Sequence record: MT446416.1
Reading direction: 5' to 3' (one strand)
Origin: Escherichia virus TH47
DNA length: 64,000 bases
Shown: in pieces, positions 32-24,010 of the stretch
Layout of the letters: every line of letters begins with the position of its first letter
Numbering within the stretch: position 1 is the stretch's first letter
Position numbers and translations under genes: made by a program
Notes under the pieces: generated by a model
What the model was told of the DNA's origin: nothing
The model's input: only the letters and a program-made list of their open reading frames with translations
Database searches by the model: none

Positions 32-1501
32 ATGTACAGTGATTATCAGCACATCCTAGATAGCATCACCAATGCTAAGTACTACGATGATATGAATGCA
101 TTTGATAACCTAGCACTTGAATCACAAACTTCCGAGTTAAAATGGGAAGTTGAAGGTGACGAAGTAGATCCGTACATAATCGACATTTCTGATATTAACC
201 CATCAGGAAGAAAGATTGGTCAGATTCGCTTCACAGTTGATGGTTATGGATTCAATAGTGTTTCACGAGTTCAATTGAGAGACAATAGTAGATATAAAAC
301 TGAAGGTATGGTTATTATCAACCCTTATAAAACAACAGAAGCAATTGTTAGTATTCCTTCTTACGCTAAGATTGAAAATGATATTAGTAAATCATACAGT
401 AAGTATGATGAAAAATACTTCTATAAAATTAAATCAATTGTTAGTGATACAGAAGCTGAAGTAATTGACAATACCCTATCTGATGGTGATAAGGTTATGA
501 TATTCACAACTGATGGTGAAGATTATGTGAGATACCAAAACAATGCATGGGAAACCATCTTGAGTGTATCAAAAATCAAAACTGACACCACACCAACCTT
601 GTACACAGTAAGAAACACTGCGAACGGAACTGTAGAACTACTAGATAGTACTGGAGTTGTACTTCGTTATGATAACATCACTAAACAACAGAATGAACCA
701 GCAATACCTCTAGCATTGAACATCGTTCGTATTAGAACCTTTGCTGATCCAGAATTCTTGGTTGATGGTGTTAAGTTGTATGAAACAAATAGAAATTATG
801 CTATCGACGCAATGAACTATGAAGTATTCTACGACACAACACTATACGGTGGTTCTTATAATGATGGAATTACACCAGATGACGTTGATGTTTGGGTAGT
901 GTCTAACGAGATATTTGAAGTTGATGGTGTTACCATTGATAACGGATATAACTTACCAATTACTGGTGCAGGTGTTCTTAGTGAGTTAGTGAGAACAAAA
1001 ATGACTGATAGTGTGGAAATTAACGTGTTCGAGTATGATGTTGGTATTATTCAACCTGTACTGAATGCTGAAGGGGTATGGGAATATGCATATCCACTAG
1101 TTAGTGATACATATATTGGTGTAGTTGGTGGAACAGTAACTAACATTACTGCTATCAGTGAAGAAAATGCTACTTATGTTTCACAACCAGATTCAGTTAG
1201 TCCATATAGTGTTACTAATAATGTTCTATCTGGTGCTGGTGCAAGTATGAATGATATTATTTCTCTTGGTTTTGAAAAAGTTGAAGTACGATTTGCAAAT
1301 AACTTACTCCGTGGGGTAATGTATAGTGCAGAACACGACTTTAAAGAGAATGTGACATATTCATTTAATGGATTGAACTTAGGTAAAGTTAATTTACTAA
1401 AACGTTATAGTGTTAACAGTTATCCAATCGAACTATCGGTTTACTCCGATAGTTTGCAAATAAGTGGTAATGACATTAAAAATCTATTAGAAGTTAAATA
1501 A
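32..1501 (+). CDS. hypothetical protein, probable virion (tail/baseplate module) protein
   Basis: 489-aa ORF with ATG start, followed directly by a hairpin terminator; no catalytic motif recognised; lies in the structural/fibre cluster. Confidence 0.55.
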   Translation: MYSDYQHILDSITNAKYYDDMNAFDNLALESQTSELKWEVEGDEVDPYIIDISDINPSGRKIGQIRFTVDGYGFNSVSRVQLRDNSRYKTEGMVIINPYKTTEAIVSIPSYAKIENDISKSYSKYDEKYFYKIKSIVSDTEAEVIDNTLSDGDKVMIFTTDGEDYVRYQNNAWETILSVSKIKTDTTPTLYTVRNTANGTVELLDSTGVVLRYDNITKQQNEPAIPLALNIVRIRTFADPEFLVDGVKLYETNRNYAIDAMNYEVFYDTTLYGGSYNDGITPDDVDVWVVSNEIFEVDGVTIDNGYNLPITGAGVLSELVRTKMTDSVEINVFEYDVGIIQPVLNAEGVWEYAYPLVSDTYIGVVGGTVTNITAISEENATYVSQPDSVSPYSVTNNVLSGAGASMNDIISLGFEKVEVRFANNLLRGVMYSAEHDFKENVTYSFNGLNLGKVNLLKRYSVNSYPIELSVYSDSLQISGNDIKNLLEVK

Positions 1502-1507
1502 CAAAAA

Positions 1508-1536
1508 GGAGAGCAAATGCTCTCCTTTTCTTTTTT
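1508..1536. terminator. bidirectional rho-independent terminator
   Basis: perfect stem GGAGAGCA/GCTCTCC with A-run upstream and T-run downstream, between convergent genes. Confidence 0.65.
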
Positions 1537-3823
1537 ACGCAATAACTTTTTCTACTGCTTTAGTTCGTTTAGGTTTGATTGCCAATTTACCATCAATCAC
1601 ATCAAACGTTACGTTACCACCATTAACCAGAGAACCACACAACATCTCTTTAGCTAGTGGGACACGGATGTTTTGCTCAATAGTGCGTTTCATTGGACGT
1701 GCACCCATTCCAACTTTAACACCATTTGTTGCCAACCACTCACGAGCCGCTTTGGTCAGTGAAACTTTAACTTTGCGGTCTTTGATTTGTTCATTCAAAC
1801 TTCCCATGAACTTATCAATGATGCTGTCAATCGCTTCGCTGCTTAGGTCTTTGAATGTCACAATACTATCGATACGGTTGATGAATTCAGGTGGCAAGAA
1901 TGCTTTAATCGCTTTATCTTGTGCTGTATCACTACCGCTCATCCCAATACTACGCTTGGTTGAATCTGCTGCACCAAGGTTAGTCGTCATAATAACAGTT
2001 ACGTTATTGAAGTAAACAGTTTTACCTTGTGAACCAGTCAAACGTCCTTCGTCCAGAACCTGTAGGAAGGTTAGTAGTACTTTACGATCAGCTTTTTCGA
2101 TTTCATCGAGCAACAGTACTGCATTCGGGAACTGCTCAATCTTGTCGAGTAGCAGACCGTTACCAGAATCGTGACCAACATAGCCTGGAGGTGAACCAAT
2201 CAGTTTAGCAACAGTATGTTCCTGTGAAAACTCGGACATATCGAAACGAATCAGTTCAGAACCAGTTGCATCAGCCAGTGCTTTGGTAATTTCAGTTTTA
2301 CCAGTACCAGATGGCCCAACAAACATGAATGCACCTTGAACACTTGATTTATCACGCAGACCAGCACGAGCTACCATCACGTTATCAACCAGTTTCTGTA
2401 CTGCTTCTTCTTGACCGTATACACGAGAACGGAGTGCATCTGGTAGATTACGCATACGTTCACTTTCAGTGCAAGCAACCACGTTAATATCTAGGTTTGC
2501 GATACCTGCAACAACTTCTTGAATCAGTGCAACAGTGATGATGTTATCATCAGTTTCACGAGAACGTACTTTCGCTGCCGCCGCATCCATTAGGTCGATT
2601 GCTTTGTCAGGGAAGTGTTTGTTCTTCAGGAACTTATCACTTAGTGTAATAACTGCATCCATTGCTTCAGTACTGAACTCTACGTTATGGAAAGTTTCAT
2701 AAGTAGATTTCAAACCATTCACAATCGCACGGGTTTCATCAATTGATGGCTCAACTACATCAATTTTCATGAAACGACGAGTTAGTGCACTATCTTTTTC
2801 GATGTTTTTACGATATTCATCGTAAGTTGTTGCACCGATTACACGAATCTCACCACGAGATAGTGCAGGTTTGAGCATGTTGCTCATATCCATAGAACCG
2901 TTGCTTGCTGAACCAGCACCAACCATAATATGGATTTCATCGATGAACACAATAGTGTTTTCACGTTTCTTCAGTTCTTTTAGTAGGTTATCGATACGTT
3001 CTTCGAACTCACCACGGTACTTAGTACCAGCAGTCAGTGCACCTACGTTCAGAGACAGAATTTCAACATCTTTAAGATGCTCTGGTACTTCACCATCAGC
3101 GATTGCCTGTGCTAGACCATCAATGATTTGAGTTTTACCAACACCAGCTTCACCAGTCAGGATGGCATTCTTCTTAGTCTTACGGGCCAGAGTTTCAATC
3201 AGTGCAGAAAGCTCTTTCTGGCGACCAATCATTGGGTCAAGTTTACCTTCTTTTGCAAGTGCTGTTAGGTTAGTGGTGTAATCTTCTAAACCTTTTTGTT
3301 TGGACGATGGTTGCTGTTGTGCCACTTTTTTCTCCCCAGTTGGCTCATCACTAATGCTTTGAAGGTTGATTCCGTTGTCGATTGCTTCTACGTGCTTCTG
3401 TAGAGTTCGTGCTGCTTCAGTACAAGTGATACCCTCTTCACGCAATGCTGCTTCTAGTGCAGTATTTGGGAAGGACAAACACTCAAACAGTACAAAATAA
3501 GCATCAATTGAGAAATCATCACGTTTAAGTTGCTCAATTACTGATTTCTTAGAAAGTTCCTGAACTACACGGTTCACGAGAAGTGATGTGCGGTTCGCTT
3601 CATCACCATCAGCACTTTTAGGTGCATGTGGGAATGTTGTATTCTTCAGATATGCAATCAAACGACCGTGTAGGTTGTCTGCATCGATGTTCATATCTTC
3701 AAATACTGCTTTGATGCTATCGATTGTCAGTACTGTAGCACTTAGATGGTCAATAGTCAAGAAGGTATGACCCAGAGAAGTTGCCAGTTCGTCGCTTTTT
3801 TTGAATAATTGGGTAAGATTCAT
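1535..3823 (-). CDS. ClpA-like two-domain AAA+ unfoldase (Clp ATPase family)
   Basis: Clp N-domain-like N-terminus; two Walker A motifs (GEAGVGKT, GPSGTGKT) and Walker B motifs (VFIDEIH, LLLDEIEKA); start placed at ATG with AGGAGA RBS (ORF track starts at upstream GTG 3847). Confidence 0.9.
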   Translation of the reverse strand: MNLTQLFKKSDELATSLGHTFLTIDHLSATVLTIDSIKAVFEDMNIDADNLHGRLIAYLKNTTFPHAPKSADGDEANRTSLLVNRVVQELSKKSVIEQLKRDDFSIDAYFVLFECLSFPNTALEAALREEGITCTEAARTLQKHVEAIDNGINLQSISDEPTGEKKVAQQQPSSKQKGLEDYTTNLTALAKEGKLDPMIGRQKELSALIETLARKTKKNAILTGEAGVGKTQIIDGLAQAIADGEVPEHLKDVEILSLNVGALTAGTKYRGEFEERIDNLLKELKKRENTIVFIDEIHIMVGAGSASNGSMDMSNMLKPALSRGEIRVIGATTYDEYRKNIEKDSALTRRFMKIDVVEPSIDETRAIVNGLKSTYETFHNVEFSTEAMDAVITLSDKFLKNKHFPDKAIDLMDAAAAKVRSRETDDNIITVALIQEVVAGIANLDINVVACTESERMRNLPDALRSRVYGQEEAVQKLVDNVMVARAGLRDKSSVQGAFMFVGPSGTGKTEITKALADATGSELIRFDMSEFSQEHTVAKLIGSPPGYVGHDSGNGLLLDKIEQFPNAVLLLDEIEKADRKVLLTFLQVLDEGRLTGSQGKTVYFNNVTVIMTTNLGAADSTKRSIGMSGSDTAQDKAIKAFLPPEFINRIDSIVTFKDLSSEAIDSIIDKFMGSLNEQIKDRKVKVSLTKAAREWLATNGVKVGMGARPMKRTIEQNIRVPLAKEMLCGSLVNGGNVTFDVIDGKLAIKPKRTKAVEKVIA

Positions 3824-3861
3824 GTATTCTCCTAAATGAGTAGTCACTCTAATTAATAAAC

Positions 3862-3889
3862 ATTATATCACATTCTTTGCGTTTGTCAA
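3862..3889 (-). promoter_or_regulatory. sigma70 consensus promoter (TTGACA-N16-TGaTATAAT) driving the ClpA-like gene
   Basis: minus-strand reading gives TTGACA, 16-nt spacer, extended -10 TGATATAAT, about 35 nt upstream of the ATG; same 13-nt -10 block as the two copies at 27336-27457. Confidence 0.65.
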
Positions 3890-3931
3890 CAAGGTAAATA
3901 AAGATATACCCGATTTATTTTGGAGACAAAC

Positions 3932-5428
3932 ATGACATACAGAATGTGGAAAAAAGGTAGAACCAATGATTACAAGTTCATTGACTCTGCCATAGCAGAA
4001 CAATACAACATCGGTGGTGTTGACATGTGGCTTTATGCCTATGTCGGACCAAAACAAGTCGCTGATAACACTGATTTATCATATGGCGGTGATTATTATG
4101 GTTCAGATAGTACCGTTGTGTCAAGCATTGGTGATTTAATTTTTGGTGACACTCCAAGTCGTAACTATAATCTCGAAGCTATCACCTTAAGTTGCGTCTA
4201 CCAAGTCCAAGAAGCAACTCCTGACTTGAAAATCCCAGGATTGTTCTTCAACTTTAACACTATGGACATCACAATTCATTATAACACAATGATTCAGCGT
4301 TTGGGAAGAAAAATTATGCCAGGTGACGTAATCGAACTCCCTAACTTACGTGATTTTGATGTACTTGGTAAAGATTCTGGTTTAAATCGCTTCTATGTAG
4401 TACAAGATGGGTTTAGAACATCAGAAGGTTACTCAGTTACATGGCAACATCACATTTACAAACTCCGTGTTAAACCTCTTACTGATTCACCAGAGTATTC
4501 AGACCTTCTAGGTAACAATAACTACCCTGATGACCCAGATGAACCAAACAACGGCAATGGTAATACTGATGATGGCTCTTCAGAGAACAGCAGCTATGGT
4601 AATGAAATGGACATTATGAACCGTATCATTATGCAAGCTGATGATGAAGTACCATACATTCATTTTACTAACGAACACTTGTTCGATGACAGACCAGATA
4701 CCGTTGATTTGTCTAAGTATATGCTAAATGGATACGAATTACCAGAGGAACCAGCAAATAAAATGTATTTCCTCAAGAAAACTTACCCAGTACTGAAAGA
4801 ACTATCTAATGATACATGGATTTCTGTAGAAGTCAAGCGTGGAACAATCTTTCCTCGCAAACCGATGGATGGTGACTTCTTCTTTAAAGAAAACGAGGCT
4901 GATGTCACTGGCTTCTCATTGTATCAATACGATAAATCTGCCAAAAAGTGGCTAAATTGTGATGTTGAGTATACTACAGAAAGCACACCACCACAAGGGG
5001 TTGATGATTTTTATATTGAATACAAAGAACCACACATTTATCAGTACTTAAATGGTAAATGGGGAGAACCAGAAGTAACTTACGTTAATGACCCATTCAC
5101 TTCTAATAGTGTTTATGGAAATATCGATTCACAACAAGATTATCGTCCTAAGATTCCTCCAGCACGAGGTACAGTTCCTGAAGGTAATATGTTCCCAAGT
5201 GATGCAGTTGATGGTGATTACTACTATCGTACCGATTATACACCAGTAACCCTATGGGAATACAGTGCATCCAAGAATTCTTGGGTGATTTTCGATTACG
5301 GTGGTAGAAAACCGTGGGAAGGTGCAGATCTTGCTCTAACAGAATTTGTTAATAGCCCGAACCGTGTACCATTACATGATGCAGTTAAACCTAATACAGC
5401 GTATCGTATACATAAGGATTCAGAATGA
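3932..5428 (+). CDS. hypothetical protein, possible virion (neck/tail completion) protein
   Basis: ORF with GGAGA RBS 6 nt before ATG 3932 (track starts at TTG 3920); stop overlaps next start (ATGA); no motif recognised. Confidence 0.6.
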   Translation: MTYRMWKKGRTNDYKFIDSAIAEQYNIGGVDMWLYAYVGPKQVADNTDLSYGGDYYGSDSTVVSSIGDLIFGDTPSRNYNLEAITLSCVYQVQEATPDLKIPGLFFNFNTMDITIHYNTMIQRLGRKIMPGDVIELPNLRDFDVLGKDSGLNRFYVVQDGFRTSEGYSVTWQHHIYKLRVKPLTDSPEYSDLLGNNNYPDDPDEPNNGNGNTDDGSSENSSYGNEMDIMNRIIMQADDEVPYIHFTNEHLFDDRPDTVDLSKYMLNGYELPEEPANKMYFLKKTYPVLKELSNDTWISVEVKRGTIFPRKPMDGDFFFKENEADVTGFSLYQYDKSAKKWLNCDVEYTTESTPPQGVDDFYIEYKEPHIYQYLNGKWGEPEVTYVNDPFTSNSVYGNIDSQQDYRPKIPPARGTVPEGNMFPSDAVDGDYYYRTDYTPVTLWEYSASKNSWVIFDYGGRKPWEGADLALTEFVNSPNRVPLHDAVKPNTAYRIHKDSE

Positions 5429-6780: not shown

Positions 6781-7245
6781 ATGAATGAAGCAGTAGGTGC
6801 TATATTTTTATCTAAAAGTACTGGACACATGATGTTAAACTTGAGATCAGAAAGAAGTACGTATTCTAACAACTGGGCATTTGTTGGTGGGAAGCTTGAG
6901 TATAATGAAACTCCGTTACAGGGTCTTATGCGTGAGATTAAAGAAGAGCTAGGTGATTCTATTCCAACGATAATAGATATTATACCATTTGATGTATTTT
7001 GTACGAAGAATGGTAAATTTAAATATTATTCATTTGTCATTGTAGTTGAAAATGAATTCGTACCTACTTTAAATCATGAGAGTTCTGGTTATGCATGGGT
7101 TAAGATTGGCTCATGGCCCAAACCATTACATCCTGGTGCAAAAAACACATTACTTAACACAAATTTAATGAAGGATTTCTATTCATTGTGGGAAAGTATA
7201 CGACAAGGTACACAGTTTGTCAACAGCTTACCATATCGATATTAA
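6781..7245 (+). CDS. Nudix hydrolase
   Basis: Nudix box GGKLEYNETPLQGLMREIKEELG (G-x5-E-x7-REUxEExGU); strong RBS AAGGAGG. Confidence 0.85.
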   Translation: MNEAVGAIFLSKSTGHMMLNLRSERSTYSNNWAFVGGKLEYNETPLQGLMREIKEELGDSIPTIIDIIPFDVFCTKNGKFKYYSFVIVVENEFVPTLNHESSGYAWVKIGSWPKPLHPGAKNTLLNTNLMKDFYSLWESIRQGTQFVNSLPYRY

Positions 7246-7251
7246 TAAAAA

Positions 7252-7280
7252 AAGGAGCCAATGGCTCCTTTTTTCTTTTT
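7252..7280. terminator. bidirectional rho-independent terminator
   Basis: stem GGAGCCA/TGGCTCC flanked by A-run and T-run, between convergent genes. Confidence 0.65.
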
Positions 7281-8379
7281 ATACCCCAATTAGTGGGATA
7301 CCTGTTATATTAAGTAGAACAGATACTTGAAGCTTAACTGACTCACCTGCCGAAAGGTTGTTTACTATACCATCTACGCGGAACCCTAAGTTTTTATTAG
7401 AGTTAAGAGAGTTAATCACCCAGTTTTCGTAATCCGCTTTTGTAATACCATTCGGATTTGGGAGAGTTGGGTCAACACCATTAATTACCATAGATACATC
7501 CCAATTAGGGCGACTACTTGTAATTACATCCTTGATTGATTCTAGTTGTGTAATGCGACGTGGGTCTGGAATCTGACTTGCACCAATTGAACCAGGAACA
7601 AATTTACCTTGGTTATCAACATAGAACTGACCTTTAATGAAAAATGTTTTTGAATTATACGGAAGAGAAACAATTTCACCTGATGAATCACTAACTTCAC
7701 GAATCATAATTTTCAATTCATAAAAATAGTTACTACCAAATTCAAACACACCAGTACCATTTGTGAATGTTGTCCAGTTATTTGAATCAACCTGTGAAGT
7801 ACCACCCATATTGAAGTAAGCTAATGGCTTAGTACTGTTACTTTGTGTAAATTCAATATATTTCTTACCTGTATCATAGTTGATATCAAGTAGTGTGGAG
7901 TACTCTTTATTTTCTGGACGAGATGTTTGAATTTCACGCCATTCTTTATTTTTCATTAGGACACGAAGGGAATCACCATTACTGGTAAGAACCATACGAC
8001 CCATAATACTATTTTCACCATCTGGTACGGTGTTGAAAATTGAAATCATTGGGATAGATGCCCAGTCAGCTTCAGATGCAGTATCTACTGGCTGACGAGC
8101 ATTATCAACTAATGCAAGAAGTAGTTCGCCAGTGTTGCCAGTATTTCTGTACCAAATCTGACCATTAACGTTACCACGAGGTGCAGTTGCTCCACTGAAG
8201 TTCTCAACCAAGTGGAGGAAGTTTTCGTTCCATGCTTGACCGTAACCAACTTTATTTCGACCTGCAAAGTTTAACGGTACTGGGTTACTACCAGGTTGGT
8301 TTGGTCCTAATATTACGTTATTTGGAATGGTAGCATAAACGCTACCATTACTTCTATAAATTGTATAACTTACACTCAT
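7279..8379 (-). CDS. putative tail fibre / baseplate-associated protein
   Basis: 366-aa ORF, RBS AAGGTGA; Gly/Asn/Thr-rich beta-type composition typical of fibre proteins; no enzymatic motif. Confidence 0.5.
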   Translation of the reverse strand: MSVSYTIYRSNGSVYATIPNNVILGPNQPGSNPVPLNFAGRNKVGYGQAWNENFLHLVENFSGATAPRGNVNGQIWYRNTGNTGELLLALVDNARQPVDTASEADWASIPMISIFNTVPDGENSIMGRMVLTSNGDSLRVLMKNKEWREIQTSRPENKEYSTLLDINYDTGKKYIEFTQSNSTKPLAYFNMGGTSQVDSNNWTTFTNGTGVFEFGSNYFYELKIMIREVSDSSGEIVSLPYNSKTFFIKGQFYVDNQGKFVPGSIGASQIPDPRRITQLESIKDVITSSRPNWDVSMVINGVDPTLPNPNGITKADYENWVINSLNSNKNLGFRVDGIVNNLSAGESVKLQVSVLLNITGIPLIGV

Positions 8380-8391
8380 ATCATCACCTTA

Positions 8392-9000
8392 TTATTGTAG
8401 TTGGACACGAACTGTGTATTTGATTTGCAAAACACGGTTAGCACTTTTCTCAACTGGGTGAAAAATAATATGGGTAAGTGGAATACCGCTATCACCATTT
8501 GTATATAAACCCAATTCGTCAAATACATATGTCCCATCCATGCTAGTACCAGAGCTAACACCTTGGTCAGATGGCTCACCTAAACCTAATGTACAAATAC
8601 AGACGATATCAGTGTAAGCTTGGCCTGGAATGTGAACAGTTGTAATGTTGTTATATTGTGAATCAATACCAGCAGAGATACGTGGGTTGATTTTTTTCAG
8701 ATAAGTCTGAGAATATAGACCACCGAAAGAAGTAACGCGTGGTTTCTTGTATGTGATACGACCAGTACTCAAAACTACTGTTCCACCATTACCAAAACGC
8801 ATCTCACTAATAGATCCAATAGGAATACCAGTACTATCTTGATTATAAGCCAACGCATTAGCAATAGCAGTACTCATATTTTCAGGGTGAATTGCGTTTG
8901 ATTTATCCAAAACGATTTTTTGGTTAGATGGATCAGTAACGTCAGTAATTAGTACATGACCCTTAACAAATAGTTTTGGTTGTTCTGTTTCTAATTTCAT
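8392..9000 (-). CDS. hypothetical virion protein (fibre-attachment-like)
   Basis: 202-aa ORF with AAGGA RBS; C-terminal ELGLYTNGDSG motif resembles phage tail-collar/fibre N-domains. Confidence 0.45.
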   Translation of the reverse strand: MKLETEQPKLFVKGHVLITDVTDPSNQKIVLDKSNAIHPENMSTAIANALAYNQDSTGIPIGSISEMRFGNGGTVVLSTGRITYKKPRVTSFGGLYSQTYLKKINPRISAGIDSQYNNITTVHIPGQAYTDIVCICTLGLGEPSDQGVSSGTSMDGTYVFDELGLYTNGDSGIPLTHIIFHPVEKSANRVLQIKYTVRVQLQ

Positions 9001-9009
9001 TTCTAATCC

Positions 9010-9507
9010 TTAGTAGTTAATTAAAATTTGTTCTAACTTACCAGCTAAACTTTTTTGTACATCAGATGGATACTTGCTAATGTAATCACGGTCAATACCA
9101 ACTTTCAGATAGGTAAAGTTTCCGGTTAAGGTTTCAGCGAATGTACCAGTTGTACCTTGTTCTCTAATAAGGTCACCACCATTTGGGTTAAGAATGACAT
9201 TATCAGTAAATTCAAGATAGAAGTTGCAGCTTTCGGTAAATTTAATTGGGAACCAATCATCGTCCGATGGATTACTTGCCAGTGTAGCGAGTACGTAAAT
9301 TCTACCAATGAAGTTACGTAGGGTAAAGGATATTGTATGTAATCCTGTAGTACTACCATAATAGCCGCCACTAGCTAATGATAATGTTTGTTCGTTCCAA
9401 TGATAATCTAAGTTAGCAGGATACCAGCTATCTGATTCAGGAAATTCTTGCCATGAACCATCTTTAGTTTTTCTTTTGAAGAGGAAGTCTTTTGATCTTA
9501 ATGCCAT
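9010..9507 (-). CDS. hypothetical virion protein
   Basis: 165-aa ORF, RBS AAGGG; first gene of a 3-gene minus-strand operon divergent from the fibre genes. Confidence 0.5.
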   Translation of the reverse strand: MALRSKDFLFKRKTKDGSWQEFPESDSWYPANLDYHWNEQTLSLASGGYYGSTTGLHTISFTLRNFIGRIYVLATLASNPSDDDWFPIKFTESCNFYLEFTDNVILNPNGGDLIREQGTTGTFAETLTGNFTYLKVGIDRDYISKYPSDVQKSLAGKLEQILINY

Positions 9508-9616
9508 TGTTAAGCCCTTTTAGTAGTGAACTTTCATTTATTTATTAATGGCAACGAAATGTATTTTGTACTGATAAATATTGGTATATGACATTAACTC
9601 ATACAAGGGAAATATT

Positions 9617-10744
9617 ATGACAATTTCATTCAACAATGGGTCAGGTGGTTCATGTAATAATTCTGGCATCAAAAGTTTAGTTATTAACGCTGCTGGACAT
9701 TTAATTGTAACCTATTCCGACAATACAATCCAAGACCTAGGTCTAGTGGTTGGACAAAATGGTGCTAACGGTAGAAACTTTTATCCAAATGAGATAGGTT
9801 TTGAAGTTCCTAATGAACTCTTCCGTGTTGGTGAAGAACTAGGGTGGTGTTATCTTAGTCTTGCAAATGGCACTAGTACTTTATATTTTAAATCAAACGA
9901 TGCACAAGAAGAAATTAGTACTTGGAACCGTGTAGAGTTTGGTAAAGGTGATACTGGCGAAACTGGTAAACCATTCCACATTGACAGTTCTGGTACGGTG
10001 TTTCCAACAACTGGTCTTTTCAATAATTACACATTCTATAATACTGAAGATGGTAAATTATATTTCTATCAAAGCGTAACTGCAACATGGAGTGATGGTA
10101 TTCCTTTCCGTGGTGAACAAGGTCTACGTGGTCGTTTCCATATTGATAGTACTGGTAGTCAATTCCCAAGTATTGATAATCTACCACAAGATTATTGCTT
10201 CTATAACACTACTGATGGTAATTTGTATTATGTTGATATCGTAACTACATCATCAACCCCAACTAAAGAGTGGAGTGCTGGAATCTTATTCCGTGGTAAA
10301 GACGGTGAAGAAGGTAAGCAAGGTGAGCAAGGTGTTCAGGGTGAACCTGGTAAAGACACAGTTGTTATCATCAACACTATTGATCATTCATGGACTAACG
10401 CATTGTTAGTTATTGGTACATGCCCTGCTGGATACCTAGTAACTAATATCGAAGTTGACATTAATCAAGCATATGATGAACCAGTAAATGAAATGTTTGT
10501 ACGTTTCGGTGGTGAAGCACAAGAAGATATTGGTGGTACTGTAATTGCACCTGTTGATTATTTCGATATCAACCGCAAAATGCGTTACATTGTTAACGAA
10601 ACCAACCACGAAGTATCAAGTAAAGATGAAATCATTTCTTGTGTATTCAATGATTCCGTAAACAACAGTTCATTTGGTGAAATGAAGATCGTTTGTACTT
10701 TATCATGGCAAGCACCTATTCAGCCTATTCAAGATAACATTTAA
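9617..10744 (+). CDS. tail fibre protein with collagen-like G-X-Y repeats
   Basis: start at ATG 9617 with AAGGGAAA RBS (track starts at TTG 9581); three Gly-X-Y runs (e.g. GKDGEEGKQGEQGVQGEPGKD), each followed by an FHIDSxG-type repeat. Confidence 0.65.
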   Translation: MTISFNNGSGGSCNNSGIKSLVINAAGHLIVTYSDNTIQDLGLVVGQNGANGRNFYPNEIGFEVPNELFRVGEELGWCYLSLANGTSTLYFKSNDAQEEISTWNRVEFGKGDTGETGKPFHIDSSGTVFPTTGLFNNYTFYNTEDGKLYFYQSVTATWSDGIPFRGEQGLRGRFHIDSTGSQFPSIDNLPQDYCFYNTTDGNLYYVDIVTTSSTPTKEWSAGILFRGKDGEEGKQGEQGVQGEPGKDTVVIINTIDHSWTNALLVIGTCPAGYLVTNIEVDINQAYDEPVNEMFVRFGGEAQEDIGGTVIAPVDYFDINRKMRYIVNETNHEVSSKDEIISCVFNDSVNNSSFGEMKIVCTLSWQAPIQPIQDNI

Positions 10745-10758
10745 AAGAGGGTTGATAC

Positions 10759-10825
10759 ATGGCAGTTTTTTCCAATTTAGAAGGGACCATGATGCCAACA
10801 TTCAAGTTGGGTAAACGTGGTGCTT
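10759..10825 (+). repeat. shared N-terminal module, copy 1 (MAVFSNLEGTM...)
   Basis: about 65 nt near-identical to 12915-12981 at the 5' ends of two adjacent fibre genes. Confidence 0.7.
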
Positions 10826-12900
10826 CTATTAATTTTGTAAACGATTCTGTCGCAATCAAAGACTTTTTAGGTGAAACGTTCCTACCTGTTAAGGTGGGAA
10901 CTCCTAATGACGATGATTCCGCAGTAAACGTTATGTATCTTGAAGATAACCCAAATGCTTTATTTGGCGTACTTCCACCAACAAATGACATTGGTAAAAA
11001 TAACAACACTTATTTTCAAGTTGATTCTGAGGGTATTGTTGATATCTTTGCAAAAACAAATGATGTTTGGGTAAAATCATTATACATTAATAAAAATGTC
11101 CTTTCCAGTGTTAACGGTGCTGATTATATCGGACTTATTACTGGAGGAACACTCCAACAGGCACAGTTTTACATAACTCCAGAAGAGTTTGGTGCAAAAG
11201 GTGATGGCATCACTGATGACACGGCAGCGGTTAACGCATGTGCAGTTTATGCAAAAGAACACCAAATCCAAATTCAAGCTGGTGGTAATTATCGTATCAG
11301 AACTGCTGTTTATTTGAATGATATTCAATGGTTTGGTGGAACAATCACTGGCAACGGTGGCACAATGGTATCAGTACTGAATAGTACAATCCAACAAGCA
11401 ACATTAACAGGATGTTATTTAAAATTCTTTGGTGGTGATGGTAAATTTTATTTTAATAAATTTATTAATATTACAAGTACTGCTACATTTCTAATGCAAG
11501 GTATGACTGAATCAGGTACTATCGACTTTTGCTTTAATGAAATGACACAATGTAAGTACGGTGTTCTTCAGCAAGGCACTGGTGAGAAAATGACAGTTGG
11601 GCGTTATTCATACAACCACATCCATGATATATATGGTGATGCAATTGAATTGAACGTAGTCAACTCACATTACCCAGACGGTTTTGTAATAGAAGGTAAC
11701 TTGATTGAAAACGTAGATGGTACAGATGCACCAATTCCTCTTTCAAACTGGGGTATTGGTATCGGCGTTGCTGGTTCTGGTCCTTATGATGTGAATGCTG
11801 ATGATTCACAATATGTAAAAAAATTCGTTATAAAAAATAACCGCTTGTACAATGTCCGTCAATGTATTCACGTTGAGTTGGGTAAAGACTTTAAAATTCT
11901 CAATAATGAAGTTTATCCATCAACGTTGGTATCAATTGGTACTGGTTTGACAACCGCTGGTGTAATTACTTATGGTTCTGTTGATTTTATTATTGATGGC
12001 CTATCTGGGCATCTATTAAATGATCCATCAGTAACTAACCGTATGGTTTCTATTAACTGGGGTGTAACATCTGGTAAATTTGCTGGTCCTCCACGTAACT
12101 TTAAATTATGTAATCTCCACATTCCTGAGTCGTCTATTATTGTGTATACTTCAGGCTCTGATAATTGGCTAAATACTACTGAACTTTCTAATATTACATG
12201 TAGTAGAATTCAATGGCGTGGATTGCCGTCATCTTCCAAGTTTAATAATATCAGTACTAAAGAACTTGATGTTATTGGACAACACCTTGCAACTGAAGGT
12301 GAAGGAGGGGGCTTATATACTCGCTCTAAATATACATATACCAACTGGACTAATTGTGTTGTTCAAGATGATTGTAACATATCAAAATATAGTTTCTCAA
12401 GAATGTATGTTGACCGTATTGACCAATCATCTAATAACTTTAAAGTAACCACTGCAATTGATGGAACTGGACATCGTGGACCTGTAGTAATACCTGTAGT
12501 TGAACAGTATTACGTGCCTTATGATGTTTTTCCTGGTGGGAGATATTTCCCAGAAGGAACAATTATCCATAAACAATCAGGTGGAAAATTTATTGTTACA
12601 GTAGGTGGTTCTTTCTTTGGTCGATATGACACAATTAGACAAACAGTTGCAGGACAAACTTATATCGAAGCATTGGGTGTATCATGGGGTGATAATCAAT
12701 ATGCTAAAGCTGCTGGAACCGAAATCCTAATCACAGGAGCAGGGGAAAACGGCGAAGATTTAAAAACATATATCACTAGAGCAGTTTATGTTGTTAATAA
12801 TGCGTATCGTATCGATATTGCCGATCCGATTGTTACTGCTACCGCAGCAGGGGCATTATTGAAAGCTGCTCAACCAATAACATATATCACCCTATCTTAA
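10759..12900 (+). CDS. tail spike/fibre with pectate-lyase-like beta-helix domain (candidate depolymerase)
   Basis: motif EEFGAKGDGITDDTAAVNA typical of pectate-lyase-superfamily tailspikes; N-terminal MAVFSNLEGTM module shared with the next gene. Confidence 0.65.
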   Translation: MAVFSNLEGTMMPTFKLGKRGASINFVNDSVAIKDFLGETFLPVKVGTPNDDDSAVNVMYLEDNPNALFGVLPPTNDIGKNNNTYFQVDSEGIVDIFAKTNDVWVKSLYINKNVLSSVNGADYIGLITGGTLQQAQFYITPEEFGAKGDGITDDTAAVNACAVYAKEHQIQIQAGGNYRIRTAVYLNDIQWFGGTITGNGGTMVSVLNSTIQQATLTGCYLKFFGGDGKFYFNKFINITSTATFLMQGMTESGTIDFCFNEMTQCKYGVLQQGTGEKMTVGRYSYNHIHDIYGDAIELNVVNSHYPDGFVIEGNLIENVDGTDAPIPLSNWGIGIGVAGSGPYDVNADDSQYVKKFVIKNNRLYNVRQCIHVELGKDFKILNNEVYPSTLVSIGTGLTTAGVITYGSVDFIIDGLSGHLLNDPSVTNRMVSINWGVTSGKFAGPPRNFKLCNLHIPESSIIVYTSGSDNWLNTTELSNITCSRIQWRGLPSSSKFNNISTKELDVIGQHLATEGEGGGLYTRSKYTYTNWTNCVVQDDCNISKYSFSRMYVDRIDQSSNNFKVTTAIDGTGHRGPVVIPVVEQYYVPYDVFPGGRYFPEGTIIHKQSGGKFIVTVGGSFFGRYDTIRQTVAGQTYIEALGVSWGDNQYAKAAGTEILITGAGENGEDLKTYITRAVYVVNNAYRIDIADPIVTATAAGALLKAAQPITYITLS

Positions 12901-12914
12901 AGGAGATTATAAAA

Positions 12915-12981
12915 ATGGCAGTTTTTTCTAATTTAGAAGGAACCATGAAGAAGACCTTCATACTTGGTAAAAATGGTGCAC
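12915..12981 (+). repeat. shared N-terminal module, copy 2
   Basis: near-identical to 10759-10825. Confidence 0.7.
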
Positions 12982-13814
12982 AAATTGCCACTAATGGTAA
13001 TGTTGTTCAAATCCAGAACTACACGGGTACACAACTTCTTCCTGTTTCAGCAGGTGACCCAACCGCAAATACACACTTGGTTACATTGGGTTATTTGAAT
13101 ACACATAGCGGTGGTGGTGGCGGTTCCGGTATTTTACGTGGAACTATTGCACCATCTGAATCAATTGGTGTAGATGGTGACGCTTACTTCTTAGTTGACA
13201 GTACTAATATTATTCAGATCTATATTAAAGACCTTGGTGTTTGGAAACCTCTCCAAAGCACAACTCCAGGTACTGATAGTTCTTACGTTACTACTGAAAT
13301 CGTTCCTGTATCGGCATTTACATTAGTTCCTGGAACAACAGATCAATATACTTATTCTTTACCTGAATCAGTACATGGTCGTGGTCCAGATATTATGGTT
13401 CAGCTACAGGGTGACCCTGGTAACATCCCACTTGACACTGTATTCCAAACTAACGTCACTGTGAGTGGTATTGGTGACATTACGATTGATGTTATTGGTC
13501 AAATCACTGATTATACAAGTGTCAAAGTCAACATCATAGGAGCAACAACAATGACAGTACCTTATAGTAAATTAATTAACCAAGCGGATTGGGTAGTATC
13601 TAGTGATGAATACACCATTACTATCCCAGCGTCTGAACATAACCAAACACCTGATAATTTGTATATTTCAATTTATTCAAATAAAACTCCAGGTAGCACA
13701 GCAGCATCACCATTTGAACTGGTAATAACCGAAACTCAAATTGATGCAAGTGGTAATGTTACATTCACTTCTGACGAAGCGTTTAGTGGTAAAATAGTAA
13801 TTTCTGGTAAATAA
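12915..13814 (+). CDS. tail fibre protein (paralogous N-terminus, distinct C-terminal domain)
   Basis: N-terminus MAVFSNLEGTMKKTF matches 10759 gene; AGGAGA RBS; poly-Gly linker GGGGGSG. Confidence 0.6.
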   Translation: MAVFSNLEGTMKKTFILGKNGAQIATNGNVVQIQNYTGTQLLPVSAGDPTANTHLVTLGYLNTHSGGGGGSGILRGTIAPSESIGVDGDAYFLVDSTNIIQIYIKDLGVWKPLQSTTPGTDSSYVTTEIVPVSAFTLVPGTTDQYTYSLPESVHGRGPDIMVQLQGDPGNIPLDTVFQTNVTVSGIGDITIDVIGQITDYTSVKVNIIGATTMTVPYSKLINQADWVVSSDEYTITIPASEHNQTPDNLYISIYSNKTPGSTAASPFELVITETQIDASGNVTFTSDEAFSGKIVISGK

Positions 13815-13822
13815 AAAAAATA

Positions 13823-13857
13823 GTCCAGACTACGATTCATCGAGTCTGGATTTTTTA
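13823..13857 (+). terminator. rho-independent terminator
   Basis: stem TCCAGACT/AGTCTGGA followed by TTTTTT. Confidence 0.6.
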
Positions 13858-13932
13858 TATCAATAACTAAATATATGTATATTAACAAGGTCAAATGTAT
13901 TTTATGCTTTTTGCCTATTTGGAGGGAACTAA

Positions 13933-16900
13933 ATGTACTCGATTAAAACAGATCTCGATATAACTGGTGGTGCAACGGTTGGTAAAGATCTTCTTGTGAA
14001 AGGCGATGCAGTATTCAATAAAAATCTAACAGTTAATGGAACCGTAACTTTTGCTGACGCTGTATTCACTGCGATTGAAGCAGGAACTGTAGACATTTCA
14101 TCTACACTAGATGTTGCTGGTAAAGCATCATTGAATGGTGGGATTGAAGTTCATGGTAATTCCGTAATTGGTAATTTACCAGTTGGCTCTGATACTGCAA
14201 CGATTAATTCTAATGCACAATTCCAAAGCCCAGTATCAATGGCAGGTAACCTAACACAAACGGCTGGCACTGCTGTACTAAAAGATACCCAAGTGGCATC
14301 AATGGATGTTCTTGGAACTTCTTCATTTAAAGGTAATATTACTGCTGAAACTGGCACTACCGCAGCATTTGACAAAATAACTGCAACTGATGCAACATTC
14401 ACAAACACTGCAACTACTGATATCACATCAACTGGAACTGCAAACTTTAAAGATGTGAATATTTCCGGTACACTAGGTGGAACATTTAGTCTATCTGATG
14501 TTAATGCAACAACTCTAACTGTTTCTGGTTTAACCAGTCTACAAGGTGGTGTTACATTAGGTTCCAACATTACTGGTGTGAATAGTAGTGCAAACTTCCG
14601 TGATATTAAAATTGGTTCCAATGCTGCAAACACTAACTACCGTTTGAGCTTTAACTATTCTGCTCCAAGTCTTCGTCCAACTGTAATTCTACAGAACGAA
14701 ATCCAATCAGAATTGATGTCTCCAGCTACCCTAAGTGTATTGAAAACTGCATCTTTTGGTGATTCGTCATTATCCACTTTTGGTATTACTGGTAATGGTC
14801 TAAACAAACTAGATTACCTAACAGTATCTGGTAACTCTGTTCAAGATCCAACAACTCCACTATTACAAGTAACTTCAGGTAAAACTAAAGTTCATGATTT
14901 CGAAGTAACAGGAACTGCAACTATTCCTAACATTGAAAGTACTGGAACTGCTAATTTTAATAACATCAACGTATCTGGTACACTCGGCGGTACTTTCAGT
15001 CTTGATGATATTGAAGCAAACACTCTAACTGTTTCTGGATTAACTAGCCTTGTTGGTGGTGTAACTTTGGGTGCTGATATTTCCGGTGCTAATAGTACTG
15101 CTAATTTTAAAGCAGTAAGTTTAGGACAAAACGCAGCCGATGCTAACGTTAAGTATGGTTTTGCTTATTCTGCCCCTGGTGCACGTCCAACTGTAATTCT
15201 ACAAAATGAAATTCAGTCTGAACTAGTATCTCCAGCAGTACTAAATGTACAAAAAACTGCTACCTTCGGTGATGCATCTCTTGCAACCTATGGTATCACA
15301 GGTAACGGTCTAAACAAACTAGATTATCTATCTATTACTGGTAATGGTACACAAAGTCCAGCAACGCCACAACTACAAGTAGCTGGTAAATCAGTACTAA
15401 ATGATGTTGAATTCACTGGTACTGTAACTGGCCTAACAGTTGATGTAAGTGGTCAAGACCTAACTCCTAAATCTGTTGTTGCTGCTGAAGCAATCAAAGG
15501 ACAAACCCTTGAATCTGTTGGTCAAACCACCGTAGGAACTAACCTACAAGTTGGTGGAACAGCTAATGTTGTTGGTGCACTAACTGGTACTGCTGCAACC
15601 TTTACTGGTGACGTAAGTGCTGCTAAAGGTACTTTCAGTGGTGATGTTAGCGTTACTGGGCAAACTGTAACTGTACGTGATTTAGTAGTAACTGGCACAA
15701 CTACTGGTGTAACTGCCCAAGCTGACGTTGATGGTCTTGATATCGCCCCAAATAAAGTTGATGTTACAACAACACTATCTGTTGCTGGGGACACTACTTT
15801 AGCTGGTCTAACTGCTAGTTCAGTAACAAGTACTGGTGATGTTACTGGTGCGTCTGTATCTGGTAATACAGTAACTGCGGCTGGTGCACTATCTGGTGGT
15901 TCTCTTGCAGTAACTGGTGCTGGTTCTATGGCTTCACTAACTGTTCCAAGTATTACTGGGGACACTACTTTTGCTAATAACGTAACTATTACTGGAACAC
16001 TAACTCCGAGTAGTATAGATTTAAGCACTACTGATGTAAGTGCTGCTTCTTTAACAACTACTGGTAACGTAACTGTTGGTGGTTCTCTTGCAGTAACTGG
16101 TGCTATTGATTTGTCTGCTGCTGATGTAGTAACAAAATCAGTTAGTGCAACTAACCCAAGTACATTTGGTGTAATTAATGCATCTTCTGTTGCCGCAACT
16201 GGTGACGTTTCAGGTGGCACTCTAACTACTACTGGTGCAGCGAAAGTAGGAACACTAACTAGTACTGGTGTAGTATCTGGTTCGCGTTTGTCTTCTGGTA
16301 CTGCAACAATCTCAACTTCTGTAACAGTTCCAACTTTACAAGCTGAAGCTGCTGGTGCTGGTACACTAAATCTAGCAAGTAATGTTGTCGCGGCAAAAGA
16401 TCTAACTGTCACTGGTGTATTCAAACCTGAAGGTGGTCTTGACCTAACAACTGTTGATATTACTGCAAACTCACTAACTACTACTGCTGATGTTAATGTT
16501 GGTGGAAACTTAGTAGTTGATGGTACTTTTGACCTAAGTGCTGCTGATGTATCAGTTAAATCTCTTGTAAGTGCAGAGGCAATTACTAGTGGTGGTGTGA
16601 TTACCGTTACCGATTCAACCAATACTAGTTCGTTCCCTAAAATTACTTCAACTGATGCAACACTCTTTACAGTAAATGCAGGTACTATTAATGCAACTGG
16701 CAACAGTGTACTACAAAGTGTATCAGCTACTCAAGTAACTGCTACTAGTGCTGAATTTTCTGGTAGTGGCCTTGGTCTTCAAGTTGATAATGATGCAAAC
16801 GTTGGTGGTGCATTATCTGTTGGTGGCATTGCAACTGTTGGTTCTTTAACAACAACTGCTGCTTCTCTTAATATTGCAAAAAATACTGCAATCAATGGTG

Positions 16901-18891: not shown

Positions 18892-18910
18892 TAATTATAA
18901 TAAAAAAAAC

Positions 18911-18934
18911 GGTGTCATCAATTATGGTGACACC
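18911..18934. terminator. hairpin between fibre genes (A-run upstream, no T-run downstream on + strand)
   Basis: stem GGTGTCA/TGACACC; orientation best suits a minus-strand terminator or an RNA-processing structure. Confidence 0.3.
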
Positions 18935-18957
18935 ATCTTAACAAGTGAGGTAGTTAT

Positions 18958-19737
18958 ATGTTTACATATGTAAAAGGTAGTTCTAAAGAAAATTATGAAT
19001 TGGGTAACATCATCTCCAACCCAGTTGGTGTTAAGGGTTTAAAAGAACGCCCTGGGGCAACTCCAGATGATGAACAAACATATCGTTATTTGTACAGTGA
19101 TATTCGTGCACTTTATGGTATTTCAAGTAAAGATGGTTCTGAAATTGAACCTAATAACGCTGTTCGCAAAGAAGAGGGTTTCTGGTGGTTGGAATATAAG
19201 AATGTTGGTAATGTGAACGCAATTAATGAGAATTTGGAATATATTAAACTACAAGATAGTAATCAACCAGTCATCACATTCTTAGAAGAAGCAGAAGGTG
19301 AATATAAAGAGTTAACAGTACTGAAAACTTATAATTATGTTGATATGGACATTGCAGCAGTTAAATCTGATCTGAAAGCACGCACAGTATCATCTCGTAG
19401 TGATCGTATTAATGCTGGTTATATGTTTAACGGTCATCGTTATAGTACTGATCTAGCTGGTCGTCAAATGCTTCTTAATTATTATACACAAGTAACTTCC
19501 GGTTCTGATAGCGTTTCGATTTTCCTTGATGACGCAATTGTAAAACTATCTGCTGCTGAAATGACTCAACTATACACTGAAGCATTTGCTATGGTTGAAT
19601 CCCTATTTGCAGAGTGTAATAAGCAATGTGCTGACATTGATGCAGTTCCTGATGCTGATGAAGATGCAATTTATAAAGCACAACAGGCGGCTGTATGGGT
19701 ATATGAAGGTATTGATATTCCTGAGCGTACTCGTTAA
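18958..19737 (+). CDS. hypothetical protein, possible tail-fibre assembly/chaperone
   Basis: 259-aa ORF with GTGAGG RBS immediately after the giant fibre gene; assignment by position only. Confidence 0.45.
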   Translation: MFTYVKGSSKENYELGNIISNPVGVKGLKERPGATPDDEQTYRYLYSDIRALYGISSKDGSEIEPNNAVRKEEGFWWLEYKNVGNVNAINENLEYIKLQDSNQPVITFLEEAEGEYKELTVLKTYNYVDMDIAAVKSDLKARTVSSRSDRINAGYMFNGHRYSTDLAGRQMLLNYYTQVTSGSDSVSIFLDDAIVKLSAAEMTQLYTEAFAMVESLFAECNKQCADIDAVPDADEDAIYKAQQAAVWVYEGIDIPERTR

Positions 19738-19751
19738 TTTATATTTTTTTT

Positions 19752-19784
19752 AAAGGTCAACTATGGTTGGCCTTTTCTTTTATC
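19752..19784 (+). terminator. rho-independent terminator
   Basis: stem AAGGTCAAC/GTTGGCCTT (one mismatch) followed by T-rich run. Confidence 0.5.
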
Positions 19785-19829
19785 TAAAATAAATACTTAA
19801 TATATAATCTATTCTGAGGAAATATTTAA

Positions 19830-21794: not shown

Positions 21795-21801
21795 TAAAAA
21801 A

Positions 21802-23349: not shown

Positions 23350-23354
23350 TTATA

Positions 23355-24008: not shown

Positions 24009-24010
24009 TA

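Follow-up and report, generated by a model that had tools for sequence, protein, structure and literature searches.

The stretch of DNA analysed here (the window, 64,000 nucleotides of Escherichia virus TH47) belongs to an Asteriusvirus-like jumbo coliphage and carries, on the opposite strand of a baseplate/tail module, a clpA-like gene adjoining the gene for a structural protein of ~3,300 aa. The clpA region is 99.3% identical to phage WPEC5, and a wider region (window positions 1300-4100) is 84% identical to phAPEC6. According to the ORF list and the sequence itself, the coding sequence occupies 1535..3823 on the minus strand, runs uninterrupted from an ATG at 3823 to a stop codon at 1535-1537 and specifies 762 aa; the length of 763 aa given in the initial annotation does not stand. 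A Shine-Dalgarno AGGAG (3829..3833, minus strand) lies 5 nt 5' of the ATG and does not vary in phAPEC6 or WPEC5. An alternative start, GTG at 3847, would extend the product to 770 aa but falls within the leader and lacks a ribosome-binding site. At the other end of the gene, a hairpin at 1503..1530 with a 12-bp stem, five G-C pairs and T-runs on both strands is a predicted bidirectional intrinsic terminator, placed between clpA (end 1535) and the convergent giant structural gene (end 1501), and an equivalent hairpin is found 3' of clpA in GAP32.

Upstream of the gene sits a sigma-70-type promoter (3862..3889, minus strand), composed of a -35 TTGACA at 3884-3889, a 16-nt spacer and TATAAT at 3862-3867 within the extended -10 element TGATATAAT at 3862-3870. 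A promoter scan gives it 12/12 consensus matches plus the TG extension, in agreement with the consensus promoter first described at this position. Perfect TTGACA-N15-18-TATAAT sites number three in the window, where 0.19 would be expected; 0/100 shuffles reach that count. Perfect sigma-70 sites are concentrated in the small-ORF terminal regions that are presumed to be early (PMC5259590). WPEC5 and phAPEC6 both retain the clpA promoter, a single -35 base differing (TTGACA here, TAGACA in phAPEC6), and the mean column identity of the clpA intergenic region across the window, WPEC5 and phAPEC6 is 93%, above the 84% that the wider clpA region shares with phAPEC6.

The NCBIfam ClpA model TIGR02639 covers the full length of the product (residues 3-742, 752 bits, E 6e-226), the top match among solved structures is E. 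coli ClpA (PDB, E 2e-178), and PHROG 4871, 'ATP-dependent protease', matches at 1020 bits. The search against Clp family profiles that had been suggested as a check returns a ClpA-type protein, whereas models or structures of ClpB, ClpV, ClpC and Hsp104 align solely as two pieces. ClpB/Hsp104 and ClpC are likewise two-ring Hsp100 proteins with Clp_N and give strong partial matches; they carry a coiled-coil middle domain that the phage protein does not, and it is this domain that splits their alignments. The ClpA model and the ClpA structures run through from D1 to D2 of the phage product without a break, and we have rejected ClpB, ClpC and ClpV as identities since the product is without a middle domain. 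It is established that ClpB also has no ClpP-docking loop. The scores of the product fall below both curated equivalog cutoffs (752 vs 993 bits for TIGR02639 and 650 vs 1350 bits for PRK11034), so that by NCBI threshold it is no equivalog of cellular ClpA and is best described as a divergent viral branch for which ClpA is the best-matching family. The gene call as such is already known, as the gene is annotated in public genomes and a protein 100% identical to the product (P0001) is deposited as a Clp ATP-binding subunit.

That the phage carries a full two-ring Clp ATPase, with an N-domain and two Walker A/B sets, was claimed at the outset, and on this Pfam, TIGR02639 and motif alignment agree. 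The N-terminal Clp_N-type domain (~aa 1-150; 3374..3823, minus strand) is divergent, with a marginal Pfam Clp_N match that spans the first repeat only (21.4 bits vs a cutoff of 20.7), the second repeat being drawn solely from the full-length TIGR02639 alignment. A profile built from 16 phage N-domains has its best match in the N-domain structures of E. coli ClpA (E 6e-9), with ClpC and Hsp104 behind. The D1 AAA+ module (~aa 176-448; 2480..3298, minus strand; Pfam AAA and AAA_lid_9) contains the Walker A GEAGVGKT (3131-3154, minus strand), the pore loop KYRG (GTKYRGEF), the Walker B FIDEIH and the arginine pair RRF. The D2 AAA+ module with D2-small (~aa 449-745; 1589..2479, minus strand; Pfam AAA_2 at E 3e-49 and ClpB_D2-small at E 1e-21) contains the Walker A GPSGTGKT (2294-2317, minus strand), the pore loop GYVG (PPGYVGHD), the Walker B LLLDEIEK and the sensor-2 GARPM. 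The four Pfam matches to D1 and D2 span E 1e-21 to 3e-49; Walker A/B, the pore loops, the arginine fingers, NRID and sensor-2 each line up with their E. coli counterparts, and these elements are kept in 118 homologues. E. coli ClpA (PDB 1KSF, 6W1Z, 7UIV) is closely similar in length (758 vs 762 aa), arranges N-domain, D1, D2 and D2-small in the same way, again without a middle domain, and shares these motifs, including both the KYRG and GYVG pore loops. Overall identity to it is 43.7%, with 51% in D1, 45% in D2 and just 28% in the N-domain, where the phage protein differs further by the clade-specific motif FVLFECLSFPNTALE.

Where E. coli ClpA has the IGL loop that docks ClpP, pairwise and multiple alignments place the tripeptide IGM in the phage protein (aa 626-628; 1940..1948, minus strand). 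The initial annotation had asked for an IGF/IGL docking loop; a tripeptide of hydrophobic-Gly-hydrophobic form is present at the aligned position, and the canonical IG[F/L] is not. With this tripeptide, docking to ClpP is plausible, although not canonical. Within the phage clade the tripeptide appears as IGM, LGL, IGV, IGA, IGG, LGM, MGM, MNM, MSM or VGF, and its degeneration in some members (IGA, IGG, MNM, MSM) means that ClpP docking may not be the function that is conserved.

Orthologues of the gene are found in the Rak2-like phages (121Q gp581, phAPEC6 gp246c, RaK2_00069, GAP32_229; PHROG 4871), where identity to the TH47 product is ~86-93% in the 121Q type, 75% in RaK2 and 61% in GAP32, and where genomic position and strand arrangement are as here with no substantial difference; the docking tripeptide is LGL in the 121Q type, IGV in RaK2 and LGM in GAP32. 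ClpA conservation among these phages is already in print (PMC6102473, PMC7824862). Members of the phage clade are at least 54% identical to the query, and after a sharp gap the remaining matches, including the sole one named as bacterial, are at most 45% identical. Against phAPEC6 the gene has a dN/dS of 0.04, indicative of strong purifying selection, and its conservation ranges from Asteriusvirus to PA5oct. At the level of sequence, the gene of this 121Q/RaK2-like jumbo coliphage is confirmed as real, intact and coding for a protein-unfolding ATPase of the ClpA type.

A tblastn search of the 64-kb window finds neither ClpP nor ClpS, and the earlier observation that this stretch is without a ClpP-like protease gene is correct. 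Beyond the window the picture changes, since WPEC5 and other close relatives encode a ClpP elsewhere in the genome, and the reading of a phage lacking its own protease fails. For TH47 itself, a ClpP and a ClpS-like protein are predicted from these near-identical relatives, both genes lying outside the window. In WPEC5, clpP (L012:15195-15890; 231 aa) is ~86 kb from clpA and matches Pfam CLP_protease over its full length (E 1.3e-41). Its product scores 153 bits with the TIGR00493 clpP model, below the cutoff of 309, vs 51 bits with a ClpP-related head-maturation model, and is 36% identical to E. coli ClpP. S113, H139 and D188 of the phage protein align to S111, H136 and D185 of E. coli, and the Ser-His-Asp triad is invariant across six phage ClpPs. 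Nine relatives match the clpA region at 98% identity or more; in eight of them ClpP is 99.6-100% identical, and in the ninth, BF17, 95.7%. ClpP accompanies ClpA in Asteriusvirus, RaK2, GAP32, CBB, XbC2 and Erwinia and Serratia phages, the two being co-conserved in every Rak2-like genus examined and ClpP being the more conserved. When E. coli ClpP was used as a tblastn query against the phage collection no Asteriusvirus was among the best 60 matches listed; the Asteriusvirus ClpP is nonetheless present, and examination of the whole WPEC5 annotation identified two ClpP-family genes labelled 'head maturation protease'. WPEC5 has a separate T4 gp21-type prohead protease (Peptidase_S77) adjoining the major head gene, so the phage ClpP would not be needed for head maturation; with ClpP also missing from the virion list of phAPEC6, a prohead-protease role for it is unlikely, though the one ClpP peptide from CBB virions keeps it in view. 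Several positions that we take to be hydrophobic-pocket residues of E. coli ClpP differ in the phage ClpP, and across six phages no co-variation of these positions with the ClpA docking tripeptide is evident.

A candidate adaptor is provided by WPEC5 CDS0300 (L008:34273-34818, outside the window), a ClpS-domain protein gene that adjoins the phage IF3 gene. Its direct match to Pfam ClpS is weak (E 0.014); it is 38% identical (E 4e-41) to GAP32_314, which itself matches Pfam ClpS at E 9e-11, and a two-sequence profile of both proteins matches E. coli ClpS structures at E 3e-8 over residues 15-90. With E. coli ClpS as the tblastn query, the phage collection yielded no Escherichia phage at E<0.01, and the Asteriusvirus gene was located solely through GAP32 synteny, with IF3 as its neighbour, and profile search. 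Thus clpA is not an orphan, as other parts of the genome in near-identical relatives encode both a ClpP and a ClpS-like adaptor. E. coli clpA adjoins clpS, whereas the virus-encoded clpA stands as a single-gene unit.

The clpA and clpP genes form separate single-gene units, each with an extended -10 sigma-70 promoter and its own terminator, and the motif CTTGT(T/A)GACAAA...TGTGATATAAT is common to the clpA promoter and the clpP upstream region in WPEC5. The 381-kb WPEC5 genome has just six GACA-N10-13-TGTGATATAAT sites, three of which are upstream of clpA, clpP and the second ClpP-like gene. The ClpS-like gene has another consensus promoter, upstream of IF3. The near-identity of their promoters indicates that clpA and clpP should depend on host sigma-70 RNA polymerase for transcription, probably under common regulation; in close relatives sigma factors are annotated, and no RNA polymerase of their own is. 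From the type of promoter, we infer that clpA would be expressed very early. On expression class, the main text on PA5oct makes no mention of its Clp genes, and in the PhageExpressionAtlas preprint mention of clpP is restricted to that of the host.

The reading that best accommodates these observations, to which we give a probability of about 0.6, is that phage ClpA works as the ATPase subunit in a ClpAP(S) protease that the phage encodes and whose genes the host sigma-70 polymerase transcribes. ClpA is predicted to act as the hexameric AAA+ unfoldase of this protease, with the IGM loop of D2 most likely docking onto the phage's own ClpP and the ClpS-domain protein probably handing some of the substrates to ClpA. 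Once assembled, such a complex would unfold and degrade proteins in the infected cell, which may be those of the host or of the phage. For phage ClpA proteins of any kind, a literature search returned no data from biochemistry, genetics or transcript analysis.

An alternative that we consider unlikely, while giving it real weight, is a ClpP-independent chaperone or remodelling ATPase that would unfold, disaggregate or hand over very large virion proteins, or remodel host or phage complexes, in the absence of degradation. E. coli ClpA is able to remodel P1 RepA without degrading it. The setting of clpA in the baseplate/tail module beside the ~3,300-aa protein, kept in GAP32 (opposite strand, own terminator) at 61% identity, would fit such a role, as would the degenerate docking tripeptides (MNM, MSM, IGG) in parts of the clade and the company of DnaJ: in PA5oct clpA lies 3' of the DnaJ gene and near a large tail protein, and in Atu_ph07 ClpA gp292 and DnaJ gp293 have adjacent gene numbers (PMC6102473). 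A translocase or assembly role has also been proposed by Iyer et al. (PMC7824862). However, synteny within phage structural modules is possibly just historical, the IGM of TH47 retains the hydrophobic-Gly-hydrophobic form, and the phages hold on to a ClpS-like adaptor and to a ClpP that is better conserved than ClpA and shares its promoter type.

The initial annotation had implied an orphan unfoldase, acting alone or feeding host ClpP, a view that is not supported now that all close relatives prove to encode their own ClpP plus a ClpS-domain protein. A related possibility, which we regard as improbable, is that phage ClpA docks host ClpP and/or binds host ClpS, redirecting the protease, or competes with host ClpA/ClpX. 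Such an arrangement draws on the lack of clpP in the window, on IGM at the docking position, on an N-domain of the ClpA type, which is the ClpS-binding kind, and on a consensus host-type promoter that fits action before phage proteins build up; yet a triad-intact ClpP with a similar promoter in all close relatives makes host ClpP unnecessary, the N-domain is just 28% identical to that of E. coli, and the phage has a ClpS-like protein of its own. Large phage genomes are rich in accessory genes and clpA is an opposite-strand island in a structural module, as would suit a host gene captured recently, or a passenger in decay, that plays no part in infection. This last reading is effectively refuted by the modest identity to E. 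coli ClpA and the gap that sets the clade apart, together with the low dN/dS, the intactness of every catalytic motif and the conservation out to PA5oct.

The favoured ClpAP(S) reading can be extended into a more speculative proposal, which we put forward as doubtful, in which Rak2-like phages would possess a self-contained, host-insulated degradation machine that destroys selected host proteins early through a phage-defined degron code. Its ClpA would have a divergent N-domain and a docking loop that is not canonical; its ClpP, a changed docking surface plus a C-terminal extension that is conserved; and its ClpS-like adaptor, an N-terminal extension specific to the phages. In this scheme clpA, clpP and the ClpP-like gene would be under a dedicated subclass of host-type promoters, and the targets may include host defence or housekeeping factors. 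The co-conservation of the three genes in the Rak2-like genera examined, the promoter motif common to clpA and clpP and the non-host docking elements make this a testable case of an orthogonal viral protease. Our literature search found no report on viral use of a complete set of ClpA, ClpP and ClpS-like proteins. Should host defence or takeover factors prove to be targeted, phages would have a counter-measure of a new type, and synthetic biology a supply of orthogonal degradation parts.

Comparable sets are combined in other very large phage genomes. PA5oct has ClpA, ClpP and ClpS together, as here, with a DnaJ-linked ClpA that is 41% identical to that of TH47. Agrobacterium phage Atu_ph07 likewise combines ClpA, ClpP and ClpS-like genes; it has seven Clp-family genes and differs in possessing ClpX and ClpB as well (PMC6102473). 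With respect to the virion, the 62 proteins of phAPEC6 particles include the products of both genes flanking clpA and neither ClpA nor ClpP, whereas one ClpP peptide was detected in virions of CBB.

We propose that clpA, the ClpA-type ATPase gene of the window, would be expressed from a host-type promoter and that its product would act as the ATPase subunit of a ClpAP(S) protease encoded by the phage; this we consider the most probable reading (about 0.6). A long reading frame occupies 1535-3847 on the minus strand, and because the ATG at 3823 is preceded by AGGAG (3833-3829), whereas the alternative GTG at 3847 lies within the leader and lacks a ribosome-binding site, we assign a product of 762 amino acids, the same 2289-nt CDS as annotated in WPEC5, a close Escherichia phage relative. 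The gene described in the initial annotation is retained with two corrections, its minus-strand orientation and its length of 762 codons. A 12-bp terminator hairpin with T-runs on each strand (1503-1530, both strands) lies between the clpA stop and the convergent upstream gene.

Profile searches bear out the Clp ATPase with an N-domain and two Walker A/B sets that had been described and place it as ClpA. The NCBIfam ClpA model TIGR02639 covers residues 3-742 in a single stretch (752 bits, E 6e-226), and the ClpB, ClpV, ClpK and ClpG models cover the protein in two stretches only, so it lacks a middle domain. Pfam matches are to AAA, AAA_lid_9, AAA_2 and ClpB_D2-small, with a marginal match to Clp_N, and the nearest solved structures are those of E. 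coli ClpA (E 2e-178), to which the phage protein is 43.7% identical overall (MAFFT; N-domain 28%, D1 51%, D2 45%). A profile from 16 phage ClpA N-domains has E. coli ClpA N-domain structures as its top match (E 6e-9), before the N-domains of ClpC and Hsp104. The phage protein has two complete Walker A/B pairs, KYRG and GYVG as pore loops, RRF and NRID as arginine motifs and GARPM as sensor-2, all kept across 118 homologues, and the dN/dS of 0.04 against the orthologue in the Asteriusvirus phAPEC6 (dS 1.06) indicates strong purifying selection. Within the N-domain (3374-3823, minus strand), at residues ~100-130, a near-invariant, clade-specific motif, DDF.ID.YFVLFECLSFPNTALE, fills the second Clp repeat; E. 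coli ClpA has no equivalent of it, and it is a candidate surface for partner or substrate binding.

Neither ClpP nor ClpS is encoded within the 64-kb window, as had been noted for ClpP. The implied orphan unfoldase nevertheless has to be abandoned, since the search for clpP elsewhere in the genome was positive in the near-identical WPEC5, which also carries a ClpS-like gene. The full annotated WPEC5 genome holds two 'head maturation protease' genes, neither of them in the window. One, CDS0522 (231 aa, record 299594-300289), is a ClpP homologue, matching Pfam CLP_protease end to end (E 1.3e-41), scoring 153 bits with TIGR00493 clpP against 51 bits with the ClpP-related head-maturation model, and sharing 36% identity with E. 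coli ClpP (E 2e-39). All six phage ClpPs aligned have the residues of E. coli S111, H136 and D185, and a gp21-type prohead protease (Peptidase_S77) is encoded separately, beside the major head gene of WPEC5. By tblastn with CDS0522, ClpP is 99.6-100% identical in eight of nine close relatives and 95.7% in BF17, 95.7% in the 121Q group, and 67-74% in RaK2, GAP32, CBB, XbC2, EJP2 and Erwinia and Serratia phages. These are the same lineages that carry ClpA, and ClpP is at least as conserved. A second ClpP-like protein of WPEC5, CDS0513 (202 aa, genome piece L012:11654-12262, minus strand), is very divergent (Pfam CLP_protease E 4e-4, COG3904) and carries a hydrophobic leader at its N-terminus; it may be a ClpP-fold protein that is exported or anchored in the membrane.

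Where E. coli ClpA has its canonical ClpP-docking tripeptide, IGL, phage ClpA has the non-canonical IGM. Across the phage clade this tripeptide varies (IGM, LGL, LGM, IGV, IGA, IGG, MGM, VGM, VGF, IGF) and is replaced by MNM or MSM in 7t3/Hallingskeid-type phages; IGF or MGF occurs in six matches listed from outside the phage block. The phage ClpPs have a conserved extension of ~20 aa at the C-terminus (RNE.G.YLVKRR.G.EEWV; alignment A2, loci L020 and L015-L019) that E. coli ClpP lacks, and they are substituted at several positions which we take to line the E. coli docking pocket. No clear co-variation of the ClpA tripeptide with these presumed pocket residues was seen in the phage ClpP alignment. 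Either a phage-specific interface or a relaxation of docking in some lineages would fit such differences. The annotated start of RaK2 clpP sits within a TTGACA-17-TACAAT promoter-like site, which places the true start probably 51 nt downstream.

An E. coli ClpS query found homologues in PA5oct, Atu_ph07, GAP32 and Yersinia and Erwinia jumbo phages and no Escherichia phage match. The ClpS-domain gene of GAP32, GAP32_314, follows the phage IF3 gene; the gene after IF3 in WPEC5, CDS0300 (181 aa), has a weak direct Pfam ClpS match (E 0.014) and is 38% identical to GAP32_314 (E 4e-41). A profile of the two matches E. coli ClpS structures over the whole ClpS core (E 3e-8), and CDS0300 belongs to PHROG 15940, 'ATP-dependent protease'. 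On this sequence evidence CDS0300 is a ClpS-like candidate adaptor. The placement directly downstream of IF3 is common to Asteriusvirus and Mimasvirus (L008:34273-35408 in WPEC5; L014:748-1854 in GAP32), IF3 of WPEC5 is preceded by a perfect TTGACA-17-TATAAT, and the ClpS core is flanked by a ~65-aa N-terminal extension and a C-terminal tail, both conserved between WPEC5 and GAP32.

Genomic position provides the rationale for a different role, in which phage ClpA would work without ClpP as a chaperone or assembly factor. clpA stands as a single gene on the opposite strand, flanked by the gene for a ~3,300-aa virion protein and by a gp15-like tail-sheath stabiliser module, exactly as in GAP32, and in PA5oct it follows a DnaJ gene and adjoins a large tail protein. 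Iyer et al. (PMC7824862) count ClpA as one of the AAA+ chaperones in jumbo-phage subgroup 2.2, suggesting a translocase or assembly role, and report that various jumbo phages have ClpP and ClpS genes. The position may, however, reflect frozen synteny only, and we regard this role as unlikely. Mass spectrometry of phAPEC6 virions detected 62 proteins, among them the flanking gp245 and gp248 but not the ClpA orthologue gp246c, and 'Clp' appears nowhere in the phAPEC6 virion paper, its virion table included. Use of host ClpP by phage ClpA, the other course open to an unfoldase, seems to us improbable, and that clpA is a functionless passenger can hardly be entertained. The gene belongs to an already known, annotated and published family, and our literature searches gave no functional study of any phage ClpA.

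Expression of the proposed ClpAP(S) ATPase would start from the consensus sigma-70 promoter that had been reported directly upstream of clpA, and which stands: TTGACA (3889-3884), a 16-nt spacer and TATAAT (3867-3862) on the minus strand, with 12/12 matches and a TG extension, reading cttgTTGACAAACGCAAAGAATGTGATATAAT. Perfect TTGACA-N15-18-TATAAT sites number three in the window against 0.19 expected (at least three in 0/100 shuffles). The window, WPEC5 and phAPEC6 hardly differ in the clpA leader and promoter (mean column identity 93%), one change making the phAPEC6 -35 TAGACA; GAP32 keeps an extended -10 (TGTGCTATAAT) and a similar terminator hairpin with a different, TGGAACG-like -35. In WPEC5, clpP has cttgTAGACAAATACGAACACTGTGATATAAT 35 nt before its start codon and a terminator after its stop. 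Only six GACA-N10-13-TGTGATATAAT sites occur in the 381-kb WPEC5 genome, and three lie ahead of clpA, clpP and CDS0513, the last at 136 nt. Other perfect sigma-70 promoters fall mainly in the terminal regions, where small ORFs are dense (at least 12 sites in one and at least 13 in the other), and RpoD-like promoters of the related phage CBB have been read as early promoters (PMC5259590). Transcription of clpA by the host polymerase is well founded, given the sigma-70 promoters, a WPEC5 annotation that lists sigma factors and no RNA polymerase, and the rifampicin sensitivity of the distant relative PA5oct (PMC7318152); that it is very early we infer.

With at most one mismatch, TGTGATATAAT occurs 16 times in the window against 4.6 expected, 15 of them on the minus strand (for example 4278, 20570, 24276, 28247, 29744, 33075, 39660, 45220, 45285, 53994, 56915 and 58065), which suggests an extended -10 promoter family for non-structural minus-strand genes between plus-strand structural genes. 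Two tandem perfect sigma-70 promoters (27336-27363 and 27430-27457, minus strand) sharing this extended -10 precede a gene for a 442-aa AAA-type ATPase (25836-27164, minus strand; PHROG 1297, E 6e-105), with which a 49.5-kDa 'ATPase', gp265c, that mass spectrometry revealed in virions of phAPEC6 is consistent in size and gene order (PMC7247149).

The clpA region is 99.0-99.3% identical in WPEC5 (99.3%), EC.P1, fEgEco12, Ecwhy_1, vB_Ec-M-J, WPEC3 and Turkey3, 98.9% in BF17, 98.4% in CMSTMSU and ~84% in the Asteriusvirus group 121Q/PBECO4/phAPEC6. At the protein level identity is 92.7% to 121Q gp581 ('ClpA-like protein'), ~75% to RaK2-type Klebsiella phages, 61% to GAP32, 54% to Xanthomonas XaC1 and 41% to PA5oct. 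Down to 54% identity the homologues make up one block, many on ~350 kb contigs; identity then drops sharply to 45% or below, where the sole named match is a bacterial ClpA. By these comparisons clpA is an old viral branch of ClpA rather than a recent acquisition from the host. The gp15-like tail gene is immediately followed by a NUDIX hydrolase gene at 6781-7245 (plus strand), a placement kept in GAP32, and WPEC5 has a second NUDIX gene nearby on the other strand. The tandem promoters at 27336-27457 correspond to ~243224-243343 of the WPEC5 record, ~5.8 kb beyond the clpA-collinear expectation, so that an indel or replacement must separate the window phage from WPEC5 somewhere in the tail-fibre/depolymerase region (~7000-27000 in the window, 217000-243000 in WPEC5).
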